Shown: positions 2,997 to 33,952 of the stretch, piece by piece
How the letters are laid out: every line of letters begins with the position of its first letter
Position numbering within the stretch: position 1 is the stretch's first letter
IMG/VR virus record: IMGVR_UViG_3300020050_014713
Span: 1-64,000 of that record
DNA length: 64,000 bases
Reading direction: 5' to 3' (one strand)
Origin: a virus
Taxonomy: Duplodnaviria > Caudoviricetes
The notes under the pieces: generated by a model
Told to the model about the DNA's origin: nothing
Seen by the model: the letters and a program-made list of their open reading frames with translations, nothing else
The model's database searches: none
Program-made: the position numbers and the translations under genes

Positions 2997-5450
2997 TCAA
3001 TGCCCATCTCGTAAATTGGTTGCTATTTGTGGGACAGCTACCAATGGAACCGATAATAAATTAGTTGTTTCCATACATCTTTGAACAATTTCGCACACTT
3101 CAGAAACACATTTACTATTAGTTGTGACTACTACCTGATCATGGACCGCAAGACTAATCCAGGCATCTAGATTTTTTTGCATAAATTCTTTTGATGCTGC
3201 AATCATGGCTTGGTTAATTACACTAGTTGCTGCTGATTGAATGGGAAAATTAAGAGCGTTATTTAGTAGGTTGTTGTATTCTTTACGGATTCTTTTAAGT
3301 TCTTCCATAGGAACTCGCTTGTTTTTTGAAATGGCAAATAGTTTTTTATAGTCCAAAATATCGTCGCCAAAGAAATCATAAATTTTTTTAGCTTTTGGTA
3401 AGTGACGAACTCTTCCAAACTTTGAAGTTACCGTGCCAGTTGTTTTTGCACTACTTAAATATTGATCCATTTTAGTCTTTAAATTTGGAAAAGCTTTAAA
3501 ATAGTTATCAATAATAGCTTGAGCTTCTTCTTCTTCGATATTCAGAGTTTTTGCAAGTTTAAAACTTTTCATTCCAAATCGAATTCCAAGTGCATACGGC
3601 TTTGCTTGCTGACGTATTTCTGGATATTTCTTTTTTAAAAAATTATCAGCTTTTTTATCAGCACTTACATCTTTTAACCCAAGTGCCATAATGGCTACTA
3701 CAGAATAAATATCTAAGTTTTTTGTAAAAATTTCCAGCAATGATTTGTCTCCGCCGTCATCAGCAAATACACGAGGTTCTAGAGATTCATAATCATCGTC
3801 AATAAATTTATAGCCCTCTGGAGCAATAAATATTTCTCTAATTTTATTAGTATAGTCTAGTACTAGTGGACTTAGTCCGCTCTCTTCGTCCTTAGGTCTA
3901 GTAAGCTGCTGTAGATCGCTTCCGTATCGTCCGGAAGTAGTGGCGTGTTGTTTAAATTGAGGATAAAAAATCCCATTCTCGTGGTTTTCTAGGAATCTGT
4001 CTACATAAGCACTCTTTATCTTACTAAGTTTATTGTAATCGATAAGCTTAGCAATCCAACTATACTTGTCTTTTAGAGAAAGTAATAGTATTTCATTTAC
4101 TTGTGGAGTGCCTTTTTCAGTTTCACTAATGGCTTCCTCCCCCATGCCATCAAAAATAATCTTAGCTAAATGATGTTTACTAGTAATGTTAACTAGCTCT
4201 TTACCTTGGTTTTGCTTATTATGTATGAAATTTTGAATATTCTCAGTTTCTTTTGCGGTTAACTGTGTTAAATCCCCCAACAAGAAACTACGAACTCTCT
4301 CATCCTCAATAGCATTAACGTTTTTTACAGTAATACTGTACTTGCCACTTGCTAGTTTTGGCACAGAAATTCCAAAGAACTCCACCACTCCCTGTGCAAA
4401 AGTCCCTTTATTAGAAACTGGATATTCTTCGTTCAAATAGTCCTTAATAAACTTCTTGCTATATGGTGCTATTTCAGCTTGTACTTCCTTTTCCAGCCTA
4501 AATAGATCCTTACTAATCGACTCATTCATAGTGTTCAGTAGGTTTAGATCTACGTGAACTCCTTTTTCTTCCATTGTAATGGTCACTAGTTTGTATAGCG
4601 GCATTACTTCTCGGTTATAGAAAAAGTCCCTTAAGTCGTCTGTTAACTGGGTTTCCAGATAGTGGAATAGTCGCAAAGTAATATCTACGTCGGCGCAGCA
4701 ATACTTTCCAATAATATCTACATTGCCTTTATAAATTTCTTTATCCGATTTTAGCCATTTTCCCCCGGCTTCTACTACACTTTGCTCTAGTTCTAGCTGC
4801 TCTTGGTTAGCAGCATCCTGGCTATCCAAGCCTAGTTCTACGCTATACTTAATTGCCAACGTTTTAAGACCAAAATCACTTTCCTCATCTAGTGTGTGCT
4901 GCAACATAACTGTATCAGCATAGATACTTTCCTTTAGATCTACTCCAAAATTAGACTTTGTTACTCGGCAGTCAAAAGAAGCATTGTGCATAATAAGCTT
5001 TTTAGTCTTAAGCTTATTTAAAATTTCCAAATGAGTAGCAGCAGCAACACCTACTGGAATCAACTTGTCTTGTTCCCAGCTTAGAATGGGCAAGTAAAAG
5101 CCAATGCCCTTATCCACACCCACTGCATAGCCAATTACTTTATCTTTGCGAACGTTAAGCCCGGTAGTTTCTGTATCGTAGGCTACGTAATCATACAAAT
5201 CTAACTGAGCAAGAACCTCTTTTGCAGATTCTTCTGTATAACACATGTTATACAGTTTTTCACCGGGAGCTACAGTTAATTTTTTTGCAACAGACTTTGG
5301 CTTAATATACTGTCGAACAATCTTTTCATACTTCTTGCTTACTGAAACCTCTTGATTGTTCAAATAAATTTTACCATCAAGCTCAAAAGCCCCGTGCTTC
5401 TTTGCTTCTTGGATAAAAGTATTTAAATTTGAGGCAGTTTCAATTAGCAT
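2997..5450 (-). CDS. polA: family A DNA polymerase with 3'-5' exonuclease
   Basis: Exo DTETTG, HNASFD, YCCADV; motif A DYESLEPR; motif B RQQAKPYALGIRFG; motif C VHDQ. Confidence 0.95.
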   Translation of the reverse strand: MLIETASNLNTFIQEAKKHGAFELDGKIYLNNQEVSVSKKYEKIVRQYIKPKSVAKKLTVAPGEKLYNMCYTEESAKEVLAQLDLYDYVAYDTETTGLNVRKDKVIGYAVGVDKGIGFYLPILSWEQDKLIPVGVAAATHLEILNKLKTKKLIMHNASFDCRVTKSNFGVDLKESIYADTVMLQHTLDEESDFGLKTLAIKYSVELGLDSQDAANQEQLELEQSVVEAGGKWLKSDKEIYKGNVDIIGKYCCADVDITLRLFHYLETQLTDDLRDFFYNREVMPLYKLVTITMEEKGVHVDLNLLNTMNESISKDLFRLEKEVQAEIAPYSKKFIKDYLNEEYPVSNKGTFAQGVVEFFGISVPKLASGKYSITVKNVNAIEDERVRSFLLGDLTQLTAKETENIQNFIHNKQNQGKELVNITSKHHLAKIIFDGMGEEAISETEKGTPQVNEILLLSLKDKYSWIAKLIDYNKLSKIKSAYVDRFLENHENGIFYPQFKQHATTSGRYGSDLQQLTRPKDEESGLSPLVLDYTNKIREIFIAPEGYKFIDDDYESLEPRVFADDGGDKSLLEIFTKNLDIYSVVAIMALGLKDVSADKKADNFLKKKYPEIRQQAKPYALGIRFGMKSFKLAKTLNIEEEEAQAIIDNYFKAFPNLKTKMDQYLSSAKTTGTVTSKFGRVRHLPKAKKIYDFFGDDILDYKKLFAISKNKRVPMEELKRIRKEYNNLLNNALNFPIQSAATSVINQAMIAASKEFMQKNLDAWISLAVHDQVVVTTNSKCVSEVCEIVQRCMETTNLLSVPLVAVPQIATNLRDGH

Positions 5451-7457: not shown

Positions 7458-7489
7458 AAAAGAAGCCTCCTAGTGTTTAGCTAGGAGGC
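7458..7489 (-). terminator. intrinsic terminator
   Basis: Perfect 9-bp stem GCCTCCTAG/CTAGGAGGC followed by TTCTTTT on the minus strand. Confidence 0.8.
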
Positions 7490-7509: not shown

Positions 7510-7797
7510 CTAGGATTCTACAGACAAGGTAAGTTCGCCCTTAATAAAAGCGATGCGTTCCTTGCGTACTGCAGCTTCCTCCTCACTTAGTGTACCATTA
7601 GCAACTAGCTTGTCAATGGGTGCCCGAGGGTCTTGGGGAAATAGTGTACTTTGTTCATTTAGGTCAACAACTGTACCATCATTAAGCTCTACAGTAATGG
7701 ATTTAACCCCATACTTACCTAGCTTAGGCTTGACGTAAGTAGTCTTACCATCCTTAGAAATTAGACTTTGGAACAGGGTGTAGGTCTTCTTAGCCAT
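7510..7797 (-). CDS. hypothetical protein (position suggests an ssDNA-binding protein)
   Basis: Start at MAKK with AAGGAG RBS; lies between annealing protein and primase; followed by a terminator. Confidence 0.6.
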   Translation of the reverse strand: MAKKTYTLFQSLISKDGKTTYVKPKLGKYGVKSITVELNDGTVVDLNEQSTLFPQDPRAPIDKLVANGTLSEEEAAVRKERIAFIKGELTLSVES

Positions 7798-7807
7798 TTG
7801 TTTCTCC

Positions 7808-8365
7808 TTAGAAACCGTTTGAGTTATTGACAGAACTTGGTTTATTAGCAAATGAAGCTGGTTTTTTTACGTCAGCAGGTTTGGCAGCTACTGCTGGAGA
7901 CGCCACTGCTTTAACAGCAGGCTTGGTTTTAGAGGGGGGCTTAACATTGCCTTTAAATACCTCGTTAGCTACGCCTAGAGTAGCAGCACCTTTAGATAGT
8001 GCATCGGTACGAGCACCTTTGTAGGCATCTCCAAGATTCTTCTTATCTACTGAAAACCCAACTGTTTCAACGTAATGGTTTAGAGTATCTGTAAAGCCTT
8101 CTGGACGTTCACAAAACCGATCAAAGAAAATGGATAGGCGACCTAGATAAAGCACTCCACCTTCTTCCTGAGGCTGCCAAGAACCTTCCAAACGCCAACC
8201 ATTAACACCACACACATTATTAAGGCGTTCTACAATGTATTGTGCTTTAACACTGGTTAGGTCAAATCCTCGGCTATTGTCAGTGGACAAGGCTTCTTCT
8301 CCAAATGCCTCCAACAATTCTTGGTAGGCTTGGTCAACGGTTTTTAGTTTTTTTACATTACTCAT
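7808..8365 (-). CDS. Rad52/Sak-like single-strand annealing protein
   Basis: VKAQYIVERLNNVCGVNGW, DAYKGARTDALSKGA...GV; low-complexity tail. Confidence 0.85.
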   Translation of the reverse strand: MSNVKKLKTVDQAYQELLEAFGEEALSTDNSRGFDLTSVKAQYIVERLNNVCGVNGWRLEGSWQPQEEGGVLYLGRLSIFFDRFCERPEGFTDTLNHYVETVGFSVDKKNLGDAYKGARTDALSKGAATLGVANEVFKGNVKPPSKTKPAVKAVASPAVAAKPADVKKPASFANKPSSVNNSNGF

Positions 8366-8880
8366 TACAGTTTTCCTCCTGGAATTTTATTATAATTAGA
8401 AAGACTTTGATGATCGGTATACTTCTGAAAACTTTTATATTCATCTTCAAAAGCTTCAAAATTAATGCTATAGCCCTTAGGTAGATGTGGAGTAGTTTTA
8501 TCAATCAACTTTTCAGCAGGTTCTATAAAATTAATCACATGGGAGTCATCAAAATAAAGCTGTCCAGAACAGTAATAGTTATCTTCCTGGACTTTATATG
8601 TAATTTCATTTAAAGTTTTTAATAGTTCTGAACAATGATTAGTAGCTCGGGTTTTAAAATTAAATGCGTGATCATACTCTTGGTAAATAGTATCAACGGT
8701 CTTTTTCTTGCTCCAATTATCAAAGTAAAACTGAGCGTCAATACTTTTAGAATTTACTGTAAAAGAAAATACTACATTTTCCATGTCTTTAAATTCATTA
8801 ACTTCAAAACCACTGTATTCTGGTCCAAATTTTTCTTTGCATAATTTGTTAACTTCTAAAATTTCTTGATAAATTTTCAT
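8365..8880 (-). CDS. hypothetical protein
   Basis: Coupled to neighbours; no motif recognised. Confidence 0.65.
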   Translation of the reverse strand: MKIYQEILEVNKLCKEKFGPEYSGFEVNEFKDMENVVFSFTVNSKSIDAQFYFDNWSKKKTVDTIYQEYDHAFNFKTRATNHCSELLKTLNEITYKVQEDNYYCSGQLYFDDSHVINFIEPAEKLIDKTTPHLPKGYSINFEAFEDEYKSFQKYTDHQSLSNYNKIPGGKL

Positions 8881-9248
8881 GATTCCTCCATTAGCAACTT
8901 GCTTTTATAAACAAATTTTTGATACTCACGAATAGCATCAGACTTGTATTTACAATCTTCAGAATGAAACCGCTTACAGAACGCTCCTTCTGTAGTGGCT
9001 TTGTTTGGGTCGTAAGCAAACTCAATAACTCCCCACTGTCCGTTAATCTGAGCAATTCCAAACGCTTCACGCATGTTAGCCGGGGTTTCTTGTGCAGCTT
9101 CAAGCTTTAGCTCTACCTTAACATCGTAAACGTGCTTATCACTCATATTATTCATATGACTAGTGTATGGAATAGCAAGTTTAGTACAGATTTCTAGAAT
9201 GTCATCAGGCTTTAGATTCAACTCTTTAGCCAACTCATAAACTTTCAT
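8877..9248 (-). CDS. protein with translation initiation factor IF2 N-terminal-like domain
   Basis: MKVYELAKELNLKPDDILEICTKLAIPYTSHMNNMSD follows the IF2-N pattern (VYELAKEL...L..L..LGI...SH...L.D). Confidence 0.75.
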   Translation of the reverse strand: MKVYELAKELNLKPDDILEICTKLAIPYTSHMNNMSDKHVYDVKVELKLEAAQETPANMREAFGIAQINGQWGVIEFAYDPNKATTEGAFCKRFHSEDCKYKSDAIREYQKFVYKSKLLMEES

Positions 9249-10183
9249 TTACTTTCCTTAGGTTCTTTTAAACCTTGTTTACTGCCGTATTTACACAGAC
9301 TGAAATAGTCACATTTTCTACCGAACGCAAAACATGAGTCAGGATTCTTTTCAAACCCCGACGACATGCACTGATTGATATTGTACAGGGTATCCTGGTA
9401 TTTTTCAAACACTTTCTGCTCTTTTTCTGCCGGAACAGCATCCACAATAAATTGATAGTTTACTTTACCGCCCTTAATTTTCTTATCAAAAACTAGAAAC
9501 CCTGCCAACTCGCTCTTTACTACGTGATTGTAAGTAGCTAGCTGGTCACTATTACGAACACTATCGTCAGTATAAGCTTTATTAGAAGTTTTATTATCTA
9601 GAACTATTTTGTAAATTTTACCGGCATCAATGGATAGTCCTTCACCTAAAGTTACATCATCTTTTAATAGTTCCTCGCCTTTCATTTGAACAACAAAATC
9701 TACAATAATTTGAAGCTCATCTCCTTCCCCGTTGGGAATTCTAATATCTTGCTGAACTCCTTCAATGGCATGAAACCGCTTCATAATGTTCTGGTATTCG
9801 GCTAAGTAAAGATTACCTTTAGCAATAAGGCTATTACATGCCAAAGAATTAAACTGTTCTAGGTTGTTATCCCGCAAATCTCTAATAAAATCTTTCTGTT
9901 TAGCTTGGCTAAGCTTAGATTCTGAGTATTGCAAAAGTTCTAAATCAATATCAACCATACTATACTCAGTTTCATCGTGAGTTAGTAGCATTTTTGCACA
10001 TAGAACACTTTGTGCGGATTCTAAAACATCACCTTCAAGAATACTATTTGCAGCTTCATCAAAAGCTTTGCCAAAAGATAAAGCCGACCCTACTTTTTCT
10101 GGATATAGCTTATCAACATATCTGTATTCAAACTTTTTTGGGCAAGAAATAAATGTTTCACACTTACTATGACTGATCTTCAT
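9245..10183 (-). CDS. PD-(D/E)XK exonuclease, RecB/Cas4-like
   Basis: ISHS...CP.K.EYRY, VLDNKTS, QLATY, C-terminal C...C.....C; start at MKIS. Confidence 0.85.
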   Translation of the reverse strand: MKISHSKCETFISCPKKFEYRYVDKLYPEKVGSALSFGKAFDEAANSILEGDVLESAQSVLCAKMLLTHDETEYSMVDIDLELLQYSESKLSQAKQKDFIRDLRDNNLEQFNSLACNSLIAKGNLYLAEYQNIMKRFHAIEGVQQDIRIPNGEGDELQIIVDFVVQMKGEELLKDDVTLGEGLSIDAGKIYKIVLDNKTSNKAYTDDSVRNSDQLATYNHVVKSELAGFLVFDKKIKGGKVNYQFIVDAVPAEKEQKVFEKYQDTLYNINQCMSSGFEKNPDSCFAFGRKCDYFSLCKYGSKQGLKEPKESK

Positions 10184-10313
10184 TAGCCTCTTCTTTCTTT
10201 TTAGCCAGTACATTTCTATTGTAGTAGAACATTGCTACTAGTGCAAGTAGCAGTCCACCTGGTACCAATAATACCAGCAGGGAATATTTAAAAATAGCGC
10301 GCAATTGCTTCAT
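10167..10313 (-). CDS. small single-TM membrane protein (48 aa, not in ORF track)
   Basis: MKQLRAIFKYSLLVLLVPGGLLLALVAMFYYNRNVLAKKKEEANEDQS fills the gap between two genes. Confidence 0.6.
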   Translation of the reverse strand: MKQLRAIFKYSLLVLLVPGGLLLALVAMFYYNRNVLAKKKEEANEDQS

Positions 10314-20426: not shown

Positions 20427-20503
20427 TGGTACTACGCCTAGGAGTTGAACCTAGCTTTAAGACGCTTATAAGACGCCTTCGGAATACCGTCCCGCCGCGT
20501 AGC
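20427..20503 (-). tRNA. tRNA-Ile (anticodon UAU)
   Basis: Acceptor GCTACGC/GCGTAGT, A73, encoded CCA; anticodon loop CT-TAT-AA; T-arm CTAGG-TTCAACT-CCTAG; atypical G8 and G1-U72. Confidence 0.8.
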
Positions 20504-33716: not shown

Positions 33717-33917
33717 TGGGATAGGTAGGACGCTACTCCTACTTACTGTGAAACTCTGCGCCCTTATTTTGCGTCGCGCGGTCCGACTGGTTGGACGACC
33801 GTTCACAGCTACGGTATCCAATATATTTTCCACAGATTCATTTCTTTTGCGTGTCTCCAGTGCTGACTCGAACGGTGTTGCCACCTCGCCAGACACAGCT
33901 TTCCACGCCGCTATCCC
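33717..33917 (-). ncRNA. 201-nt tRNA-like structured RNA
   Basis: GGGATAG/CTATCCC-A terminal stem, D-like stem GCGTG/CACGC, 8-bp anticodon-like stem, T-like arm GTAGG-AGTAGCGT-CCTAC; starts at the predicted +1 of a consensus promoter. Confidence 0.8.
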
Positions 33918-33923
33918 AAAACT

Positions 33924-33952
33924 AGAATACGTTTTTACTCAAAAAATGTCAA
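33924..33952 (-). promoter_or_regulatory. strong sigma70 promoter of the tRNA-like RNA
   Basis: TTGACA-N17-TATTCT, 6 nt upstream of G33917. Confidence 0.8.

Follow-up and report, generated by a model that had tools for sequence, protein, structure and literature searches.

The window analyzed here, a 64,000-nt stretch of a virus genome that is complete at 83.7 kb and has terminal repeats, encodes a 123-residue protein in which an IF2_N domain, related to the N-terminal region of translation initiation factor IF2, is joined to a second, C-terminal domain. This protein belongs to an undescribed small family and adds a new domain combination to a type of phage recombination module that is already known. 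The strongest evidence on its role is its genomic context, in that the gene is embedded among genes for a Cas4-like exonuclease and a Rad52-like annealing protein. The best explanation that we can offer, and a tentative one, is that the IF2_N protein is a nucleic-acid-tethering accessory of this annealase/exonuclease module.

The gene and its recombination cassette

The open reading frame lies at positions 8877–9248 on the minus strand of the window and is preceded by an AAGGA Shine-Dalgarno sequence 6 nt 5′ of its ATG. The junction sequences show ATGA overlaps at both ends: at the upstream end its ATG and the stop codon (TGA) of the nuclease gene overlap, and at the downstream end its TGA overlaps the ATG of a gene coding for a 171-residue protein. 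Comparison with a 76%-identical homologue gives a dN of 0.16, a dS of ∼2.0 (saturated) and a dN/dS of ∼0.08, which shows that the gene encodes a real, constrained protein under strong purifying selection. Four segments can be distinguished, all on the minus strand. The N-domain (residues 1–48; 9105–9248) is defined by Pfam family PF04760, by an AlphaFold2 (AF2) model and by superposition on PDB structures; the linker (residues 49–57; 9078–9104) by family alignments and as the block of lowest pLDDT in the model (79); the C-domain (residues 58–118; 8895–9077) by the model; and the C-terminal tail, L-M-E-E-S plus the overlapping stop codon (8877–8894), by the family alignment.

The neighboring genes are all on the same strand. 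Upstream is the gene for a Cas4-like PD-(D/E)XK exonuclease (9245–10213), which matches PF12705 with an E-value of 8e-12 as well as the exonuclease family phrog_1218. Its family alignment has an invariant C-terminal Cys triad (C294/C301/C307), and the Cys pattern suggests an iron-sulfur arrangement of the Cas4/AddB type; the copy in the window also has Cys in its N-terminal segment. Downstream are the gene for the 171-residue protein (8365–8880), which matches no family, and that for the Rad52-like single-strand annealing protein (7808–8365), which scores 21.7 bits against PF04098 (cut-off 20.3) and matches the Erf-like SSAP family phrog_1097. These are followed by the gene for a fourth cassette protein of ∼95 residues (7510–7797), the start of which we set at the Met of M-A-K-K-T-Y to match its homologues. 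The fourth protein has no family match; homologues 27–81% identical to it are found directly after the annealase in all lineages, and it is possibly a small ssDNA-binding protein. A terminator-like hairpin of nine pairs, six of them G-C (7465–7489, minus strand; a consensus match only, from a pattern scan), closes the cassette ahead of the primase-helicase gene.

Relatives of the IF2_N protein are few. Three close relatives came from a word-indexed search covering 5.8 billion clusters, and an exhaustive pass with HMMER through 1.84 billion representatives yielded ten proteins at E≤0.001, half of which are new full-length relatives with 30–36% identity. A further relative was added by a profile re-search, for a total of nine lineages (28–76% identity) that share the same two-domain plan and that, in the databases searched, all come from metagenomic or uncultured phages. 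Residues M1, L6, A7 and H31 of the head and K102, A105 and S116 of the tail domain are invariant. The remaining significant matches share the IF2_N head only, and the GenBank phage collection returned neither DNA nor protein matches.

In the nine lineages the gene order is exonuclease, IF2_N protein, annealase, ∼95-residue protein, DnaB-type primase-helicase and DNA polymerase. Wherever the contig extends far enough, the exonuclease gene precedes the IF2_N gene, with one or two variable small genes between them in some lineages, and the whole region from a lytic transglycosylase gene through the polymerase gene is collinear across lineages. Between-lineage identities, determined by reciprocal BLAST and HMM comparisons, are 31–72% for the nuclease, 40–68% for the annealase and 27–83% for the fourth protein. 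In six lineages, the stop codon of the IF2_N gene either abuts the start of the annealase gene or overlaps it; in the clade to which the window belongs, genes have been inserted before the annealase, and the IF2_N gene instead overlaps the exonuclease stop (ATGA). The original prediction had placed the gene in a recombination operon between the nuclease and the annealing protein, and this is correct except that the gene does not adjoin that of the annealase, the gene for the 171-residue protein being interposed.

Two kinds of variation were seen in this region. The gap between the IF2_N and annealase genes is a hotspot for variable genes, with nothing there in the more distant lineages. The 171-residue protein has only a 30% match to a 90-residue ORF in one relative (L004:3018-3290), and another relative has three genes in the gap (L001:941-2503), two of which are paralogous and Imm5-like. 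The polymerase has also been swapped among close relatives, with an 817-residue family A enzyme encoded in the window (2997–5450) and in L004 (L004:6431-8884), and a family B polymerase at the same position in L007 and in L001 (L001:5443-7149), the latter encoding the IF2_N protein that is 76% identical to that of the window.

The N-terminal domain

The N-domain is a genuine IF2_N domain of the N2 or N-G1 type. Residues 1–39 match PF04760 (IF2_N) with 30.6 bits (E = 2.8e-7), exceeding the curated gathering cut-off of 25.3 bits, and the same family is matched by all nine members with a best E-value of 8.2e-11. Among PDB sequences, a single-query phmmer search found IF2 only (Thermus IF2, 4b44, residues 5–51; E = 0.0025), and a nine-sequence profile likewise found only IF2 chains, with 4b44 matched over residues 5–62 at E = 8e-7. 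Families of the MerR and HTH_17 type were not matched in Pfam by any of the nine members at E-values up to 10, and PHROG gave a weak match to the HTH DNA-binding protein family phrog_7126 (E = 0.054). The IF2-N signature proposed from the sequence for residues 1–48 is thus confirmed, and the Pfam and PDB profiles identify IF2_N and IF2 rather than a generic HTH or excisionase.

The resemblance to IF2 is confined to this domain and is distant. Profile searches found no GTP_EFTU or IF-2 domain in the 123-residue protein. Using hhalign, the head aligns with residues 317–362 of Escherichia coli IF2 (domain N2) at E = 0.013 and with domain N1 at E = 0.19, both of these being weak matches. When residues 1–120 of E. 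coli IF2 were compared to the family alignment, N1 aligned in register but not significantly, and the E. coli strands at 57–90 had no significant similarity to the phage C-domain. Identity of the phage N-domain to any IF2 is ∼28%, and it is therefore no recent copy from a host.

An AF2 run with four close sequences as input reached a pLDDT of only 35, and we used instead an alignment of 16 rows, composed of the nine members and seven IF2_N heads. This produced a two-domain model with a pLDDT of 90.6 and a pTM of 0.74, in which residues 1–48 (pLDDT 91–96) form a beta-alpha-alpha-beta-alpha arrangement that can be described as three-helix or winged-HTH-like. The model has the fold of IF2 N/G1, as anticipated by the original prediction: it superposes on Thermus IF2 N/G1 (4kjz_A) with an rmsd of 1.1 Å over 48 residues (Z 7.0), and also matches 9a4o (Z 7.8) and 4b3x (Z 7.4; Foldseek probability 1.00). 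Other matches are to DNA-bound pSK1 Par (8csh_A; Z 7.2, rmsd 2.4 Å over 49 residues) and DNA-bound RacA (5i44_B; Z 5.6), with weaker ones to CadR (6jgx; Z 4.5) and the PheRS B5 domain; Z values below 8, as all of these are, can represent a common structural arrangement. As modeled, the N-domain fits the DNA-bound MerR-type winged-helix heads about as well as it fits IF2 N/G1. With the whole model as query, Foldseek searches of the PDB and BFVD gave nothing at E≤0.001 and a high probability for IF2 rows only, and a whole-protein search of the ESM Atlas gave only IF2_N clusters. The net charge of the N-domain is between −3 and +2, neutral to acidic, and helix 2 opens with Asp-Asp, a combination that would be unusual for a DNA-binding HTH.

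Domains with this fold have been described both on ribosomes and on DNA. In 70S initiation complexes of Pseudomonas aeruginosa, IF2 domain N2, which forms a three-helix bundle fitting Thermus N/G1 at 1 Å, sits on helix h16 of 16S rRNA and contacts it through Ser277-Val278-Lys279, Arg259 and a tail wrapped around the minor groove (PMC9192638). Domain N1 of E. coli IF2, the distal copy, has no noticeable ribosome binding; together with the two following strands (57–90) it binds NusA KH2-AR1, also in vivo (PMC12297416). The only E. coli isoform with N1 is IF2-1, the loss of which renders cells highly sensitive to two-ended double-strand breaks, and IF2-1 has been proposed to assist RecA-mediated annealing (bioRxiv 10.1101/2021.11.18.469101, 10.1101/2021.06.16.448654). 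IF2 has also been linked to replication restart after Mu transposition (PMC3334882). Par and RacA have winged-HTH domains of the MerR type, in which helix 2 inserts into the major groove (PMC11500499).

Residues 1–48 of the phage protein thus have the same fold as IF2 N2/N-G1 (4B3X, 4KJZ, 7UIU) and belong to the same sequence family (PF04760). Unlike IF2, the phage protein has no G domain, none of the other IF2 domains and no N-terminal tail of the kind that wraps h16; its head is fused to an unrelated 65-residue domain, and it is encoded in a phage recombination cassette. The MerR-type domains of pSK1 Par and Bacillus subtilis RacA (8CSH, 5I44) share the same small fold over 48–49 residues, and as in the phage protein they are N-terminal heads on differing tails; in Par and RacA the head docks nucleic acid. 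In contrast to these, the phage domain is not basic, and it has no detectable sequence relationship to them.

The IF2_N domain is not restricted to this family or to IF2. The literature has a passing mention of IF2_N on a DGR target protein (PMC5758913), and by scanning IMG/VR we found 38 loci (L008–L045) encoding proteins that start, at residue 1, with an IF2_N head but have other tails. Many of these are proteins of 220–250 residues (phrog_5329/13983; for example L012:6001-6723 and L017:6001-6675) from contigs of 90–190 kb, in which the same head, scoring 33–45 bits, is followed by an unrelated C-domain of ∼170 residues; at the one locus that was annotated (L012) the gene is among virion genes. 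The presence of the head on many unrelated tails shows that it is a portable module, and its occurrence alone is no sign of a takeover of translation. Two shorter proteins (L010:3640-4077 and L014:3256-3678; 140–145 residues) have an IF2_N head, an acidic linker and an amphipathic C-terminal G-F-W-G-W-L-K-G, a head-linker-membrane-helix layout that resembles that of the Par and RocS segregation proteins (PMC11500499). A tblastn search of plasmids with the L010 protein gave one match, located in a Fusobacterium record of 2.1 Mb at a place where no feature is annotated.

The C-terminal domain and cassettes lacking the IF2_N gene

The linker varies in both length and sequence across the family. 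In the AF2 model the C-domain that follows has three antiparallel strands (residues 60–68, 71–79 and 89–95) and a helix (102–115), and it carries the motifs F-G-I-A..N-G-x-W-G-V and K-Y-K-S-x-A. No family in Pfam, PHROG or NCBIfam is matched by residues 58–118, which are distinct from the head, and the fusion to an unrelated domain of ∼70 residues is as had been claimed. Fold comparisons, which also took in DMF alpha, gave a best Z of 5.3 (2ra8), ∼5 for halves of PH domains, 4.5 for WGR and 4.1–4.6 for YegP/DUF1508-like folds (rmsd >5 Å), all of these being within the noise range. Structural look-alikes in the ESM Atlas (TM 0.5–0.64) cover short stretches only, and that search gave no usable feature match for the C-domain. 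The structure search suggested earlier has thus provided a small three-strand-plus-helix domain and not a named fold. A WGR-like DNA-end sensor was considered and dropped, as the WGR match reaches a Z of only 4.5 and has no accompanying profile match.

The tail contains Asp or Glu in all nine members, three of which also have Lys or Arg there. Both domains of the window protein have a pI of 5.6–5.8, although charge is not conserved across the family, in which the domain pI ranges from 4.7 to 9.4. An inhibitor acting as a DNA mimic was dropped because of this variation in charge.

The same annealase, with 40–49% identity, occurs in seven further sequences, five from IMG/VR phages and two on MAG contigs. 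The same nuclease accompanies it in four, and none of the seven has a member of the IF2_N family. In cassettes without the IF2_N gene, other small proteins fill the slot before the annealase. In L046 and L047 (L046:4789-4998 and L047:4789-4998) a 69-residue ORF directly before the annealase is XRE-type HTH-like, by eye only; the slot is occupied in L048 by a lysine-rich protein of 139 residues, in L049 by a protein of 99 residues, and in L056 and L057 by lysine-tailed proteins of 89 and 92 residues, respectively.

Some of these slot proteins may be related to the C-domain. By hhalign, the alignment of the L056 slot family with the C-domain is colinear and spans the entire domain (E = 0.0076, 55 columns), and the L056 protein has a lysine-rich N-tail where the IF2_N head would be; the L057 protein aligns over the C-domain hairpin (E = 0.033). 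The slot proteins of L048 and L049 have no relationship to the IF2_N-protein family by the same method. A C-domain HMM scored all of the slot proteins at 2–4 bits only, BLASTP gave no alignment between the L056 and L057 proteins, and no new relatives of the L057 or L048 proteins came from scans of IMG/VR. These comparisons are suggestive, not proof, of an arrangement in which the C-domain may be a cassette-specific core, and the head, whether IF2_N or a lysine tail, an exchangeable part that docks nucleic acid.

Candidate roles of the IF2_N protein

In the accessory role that we tentatively favor, the C-domain and acidic tail would constitute the cassette-specific part of the protein, contacting the annealase, the exonuclease or both. 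The IF2_N head, as a small unit for docking on helices, would hold on to a nucleic-acid duplex, either a DNA end or the duplex beside the resected strand, and so retain the annealase at the place where the exonuclease makes single-stranded DNA. In this scheme we infer the protein contacts, the ligand of the N-domain and the effect on recombination. The accessory role is favored by the fixed gene order next to the annealase and exonuclease genes with its stop/start coupling, by the N-domain fold, which docks duplexes elsewhere (IF2 on h16; DNA-bound Par and RacA), by the weak alignments of the L056 and L057 slot proteins with the C-domain, and by the portability of the head among other phage proteins. 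The confidence of the two-domain model and the purifying selection on the protein also argue for it, as does the precedent for small accessory genes beside phage annealase genes. Lambda encodes Gam together with Exo and Bet, and P22 encodes Arf and Abc together with Erf, with arf preceding erf. The IF2_N gene is likewise small, and co-transcribed and translationally coupled with the genes for an exonuclease and an annealing protein, although its product has no sequence or fold similarity to Gam, Arf or Abc, and the nuclease and annealase of this cassette are Cas4-like and Rad52-like, respectively.

Several observations weaken the accessory reading. The N-domain is non-basic, its helix 2 opens with Asp-Asp, and by sequence it matches no MerR or HTH family at E-values up to 10; the homology to the slot proteins is weak, and absent for L048 and L049; and phages with the same annealase do without an IF2_N gene. 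Moreover, the synteny may only reflect the conserved replication module of one phage lineage. If the accessory role is correct, the protein would add a third, new component to a phage recombination system of the Rad52 type and could improve recombineering tools derived from such cassettes. The IF2 N-terminal fold has been tied to 30S docking, to NusA binding and, genetically, to homologous recombination, and dissecting that fold is much simpler in a protein of 123 residues whose genetic partner is defined than in IF2.

A sequence-specific DNA-binding regulator, acting as a winged-HTH repressor or activator of the early or recombination operon, would account for the resemblance of the fold to those of DNA-bound Par, RacA and CadR, and the HTH-like ORF (by eye) at the same position in L046 and L047 and the faint resemblance to phrog_7126 point the same way. 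We nonetheless consider it unlikely, since the N-domain is not basic and matches no HTH family by sequence, promoter-like sites occur at chance level, and tight stop/start coupling to the annealase would not be expected of a regulator. The original prediction proposed an IF2 mimic or competitor, or else a partner of the 201-nt tRNA-like RNA; as an N2 mimic, the head would dock on h16 at the 30S shoulder and either compete with host IF2 or bring the C-domain to ribosomes. The close superposition on 4kjz and the profile match to Thermus IF2 place the domain in the N2 or N-G1 type, the E. coli alignment is better for N2 than for N1, and the N2 Ser-Val-Lys turn on h16 (PMC9192638) would correspond by alignment to Asn11-Leu12-Lys13 of the phage protein. 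Charge is no argument against such a mimic, because the IF2 N/G1 domain is also acidic. However, the phage protein has nothing before strand 1 and thus lacks the basic N-terminal tail with its h16-wrapping Arg; Lys13 is kept in only six of the nine members; and the genes with which its own gene is translationally coupled are those of recombination, not of host takeover. The nearest matches outside the family are stand-alone or repeated IF2_N proteins rather than IF2, which together with the low identity to IF2 argues that the phage head does not track that of the host. Thus the IF2_N build stands, whereas neither the mimic or competitor role nor the partnership with the RNA gained positive support, the gene being locked to those of the annealase and exonuclease in all nine lineages, and we regard the mimic role as quite unlikely.

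Binding to a host factor would be an alternative way of using the head. The IF2_N module could be a recombination-linked adaptor that recruits to the phage annealase a partner of the host IF2 N-region (NusA, or a restart or recombination factor) or that replaces IF2-1 at annealing; this is prompted by IF2-1 alone carrying the extra IF2_N fold and being needed for repair of two-ended breaks, and is in our judgment distinctly improbable. The chance appears slighter than for any other role considered here that the protein copies IF2 Domain I as a NusA binder and acts on host transcription elongation or on transcription-translation coupling. IF2 N1 with strands 57–90 does bind NusA in vivo (PMC12297416), and the phage protein is also modeled as this fold followed by a beta-hairpin, but the phage domain resembles N2 more than it does N1, and hhalign found no significant similarity of the C-domain to E. 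coli IF2 57–90. Nor do we give much credence to an inhibitor of a host nuclease or defense system, analogous to lambda Gam, that would protect the ends used by the phage exonuclease and annealase. The window protein is small, acidic and co-expressed with an exonuclease and annealase as Gam is, and a variable, anti-defense-like slot with Imm5-like genes in L001 adjoins; the acidity of the window protein is not conserved in its relatives, however, and Pfam and PHROG revealed no similarity to Gam, Abc2 or known anti-defense families, making this very improbable.

For annotation, these findings advise caution in that a phage IF2_N match should not by default be taken as translation takeover, the fold being shared with DNA-binding winged-helix heads. 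As for structured RNAs, Rfam reports no family anywhere in the window at the gathering threshold, and the 201-nt tRNA-shaped RNA noted earlier (33717–33952) therefore belongs to no catalogued family; the sole tRNA found by ARAGORN is a tRNA-Ile(UAU) at 20427–20503 on the minus strand.
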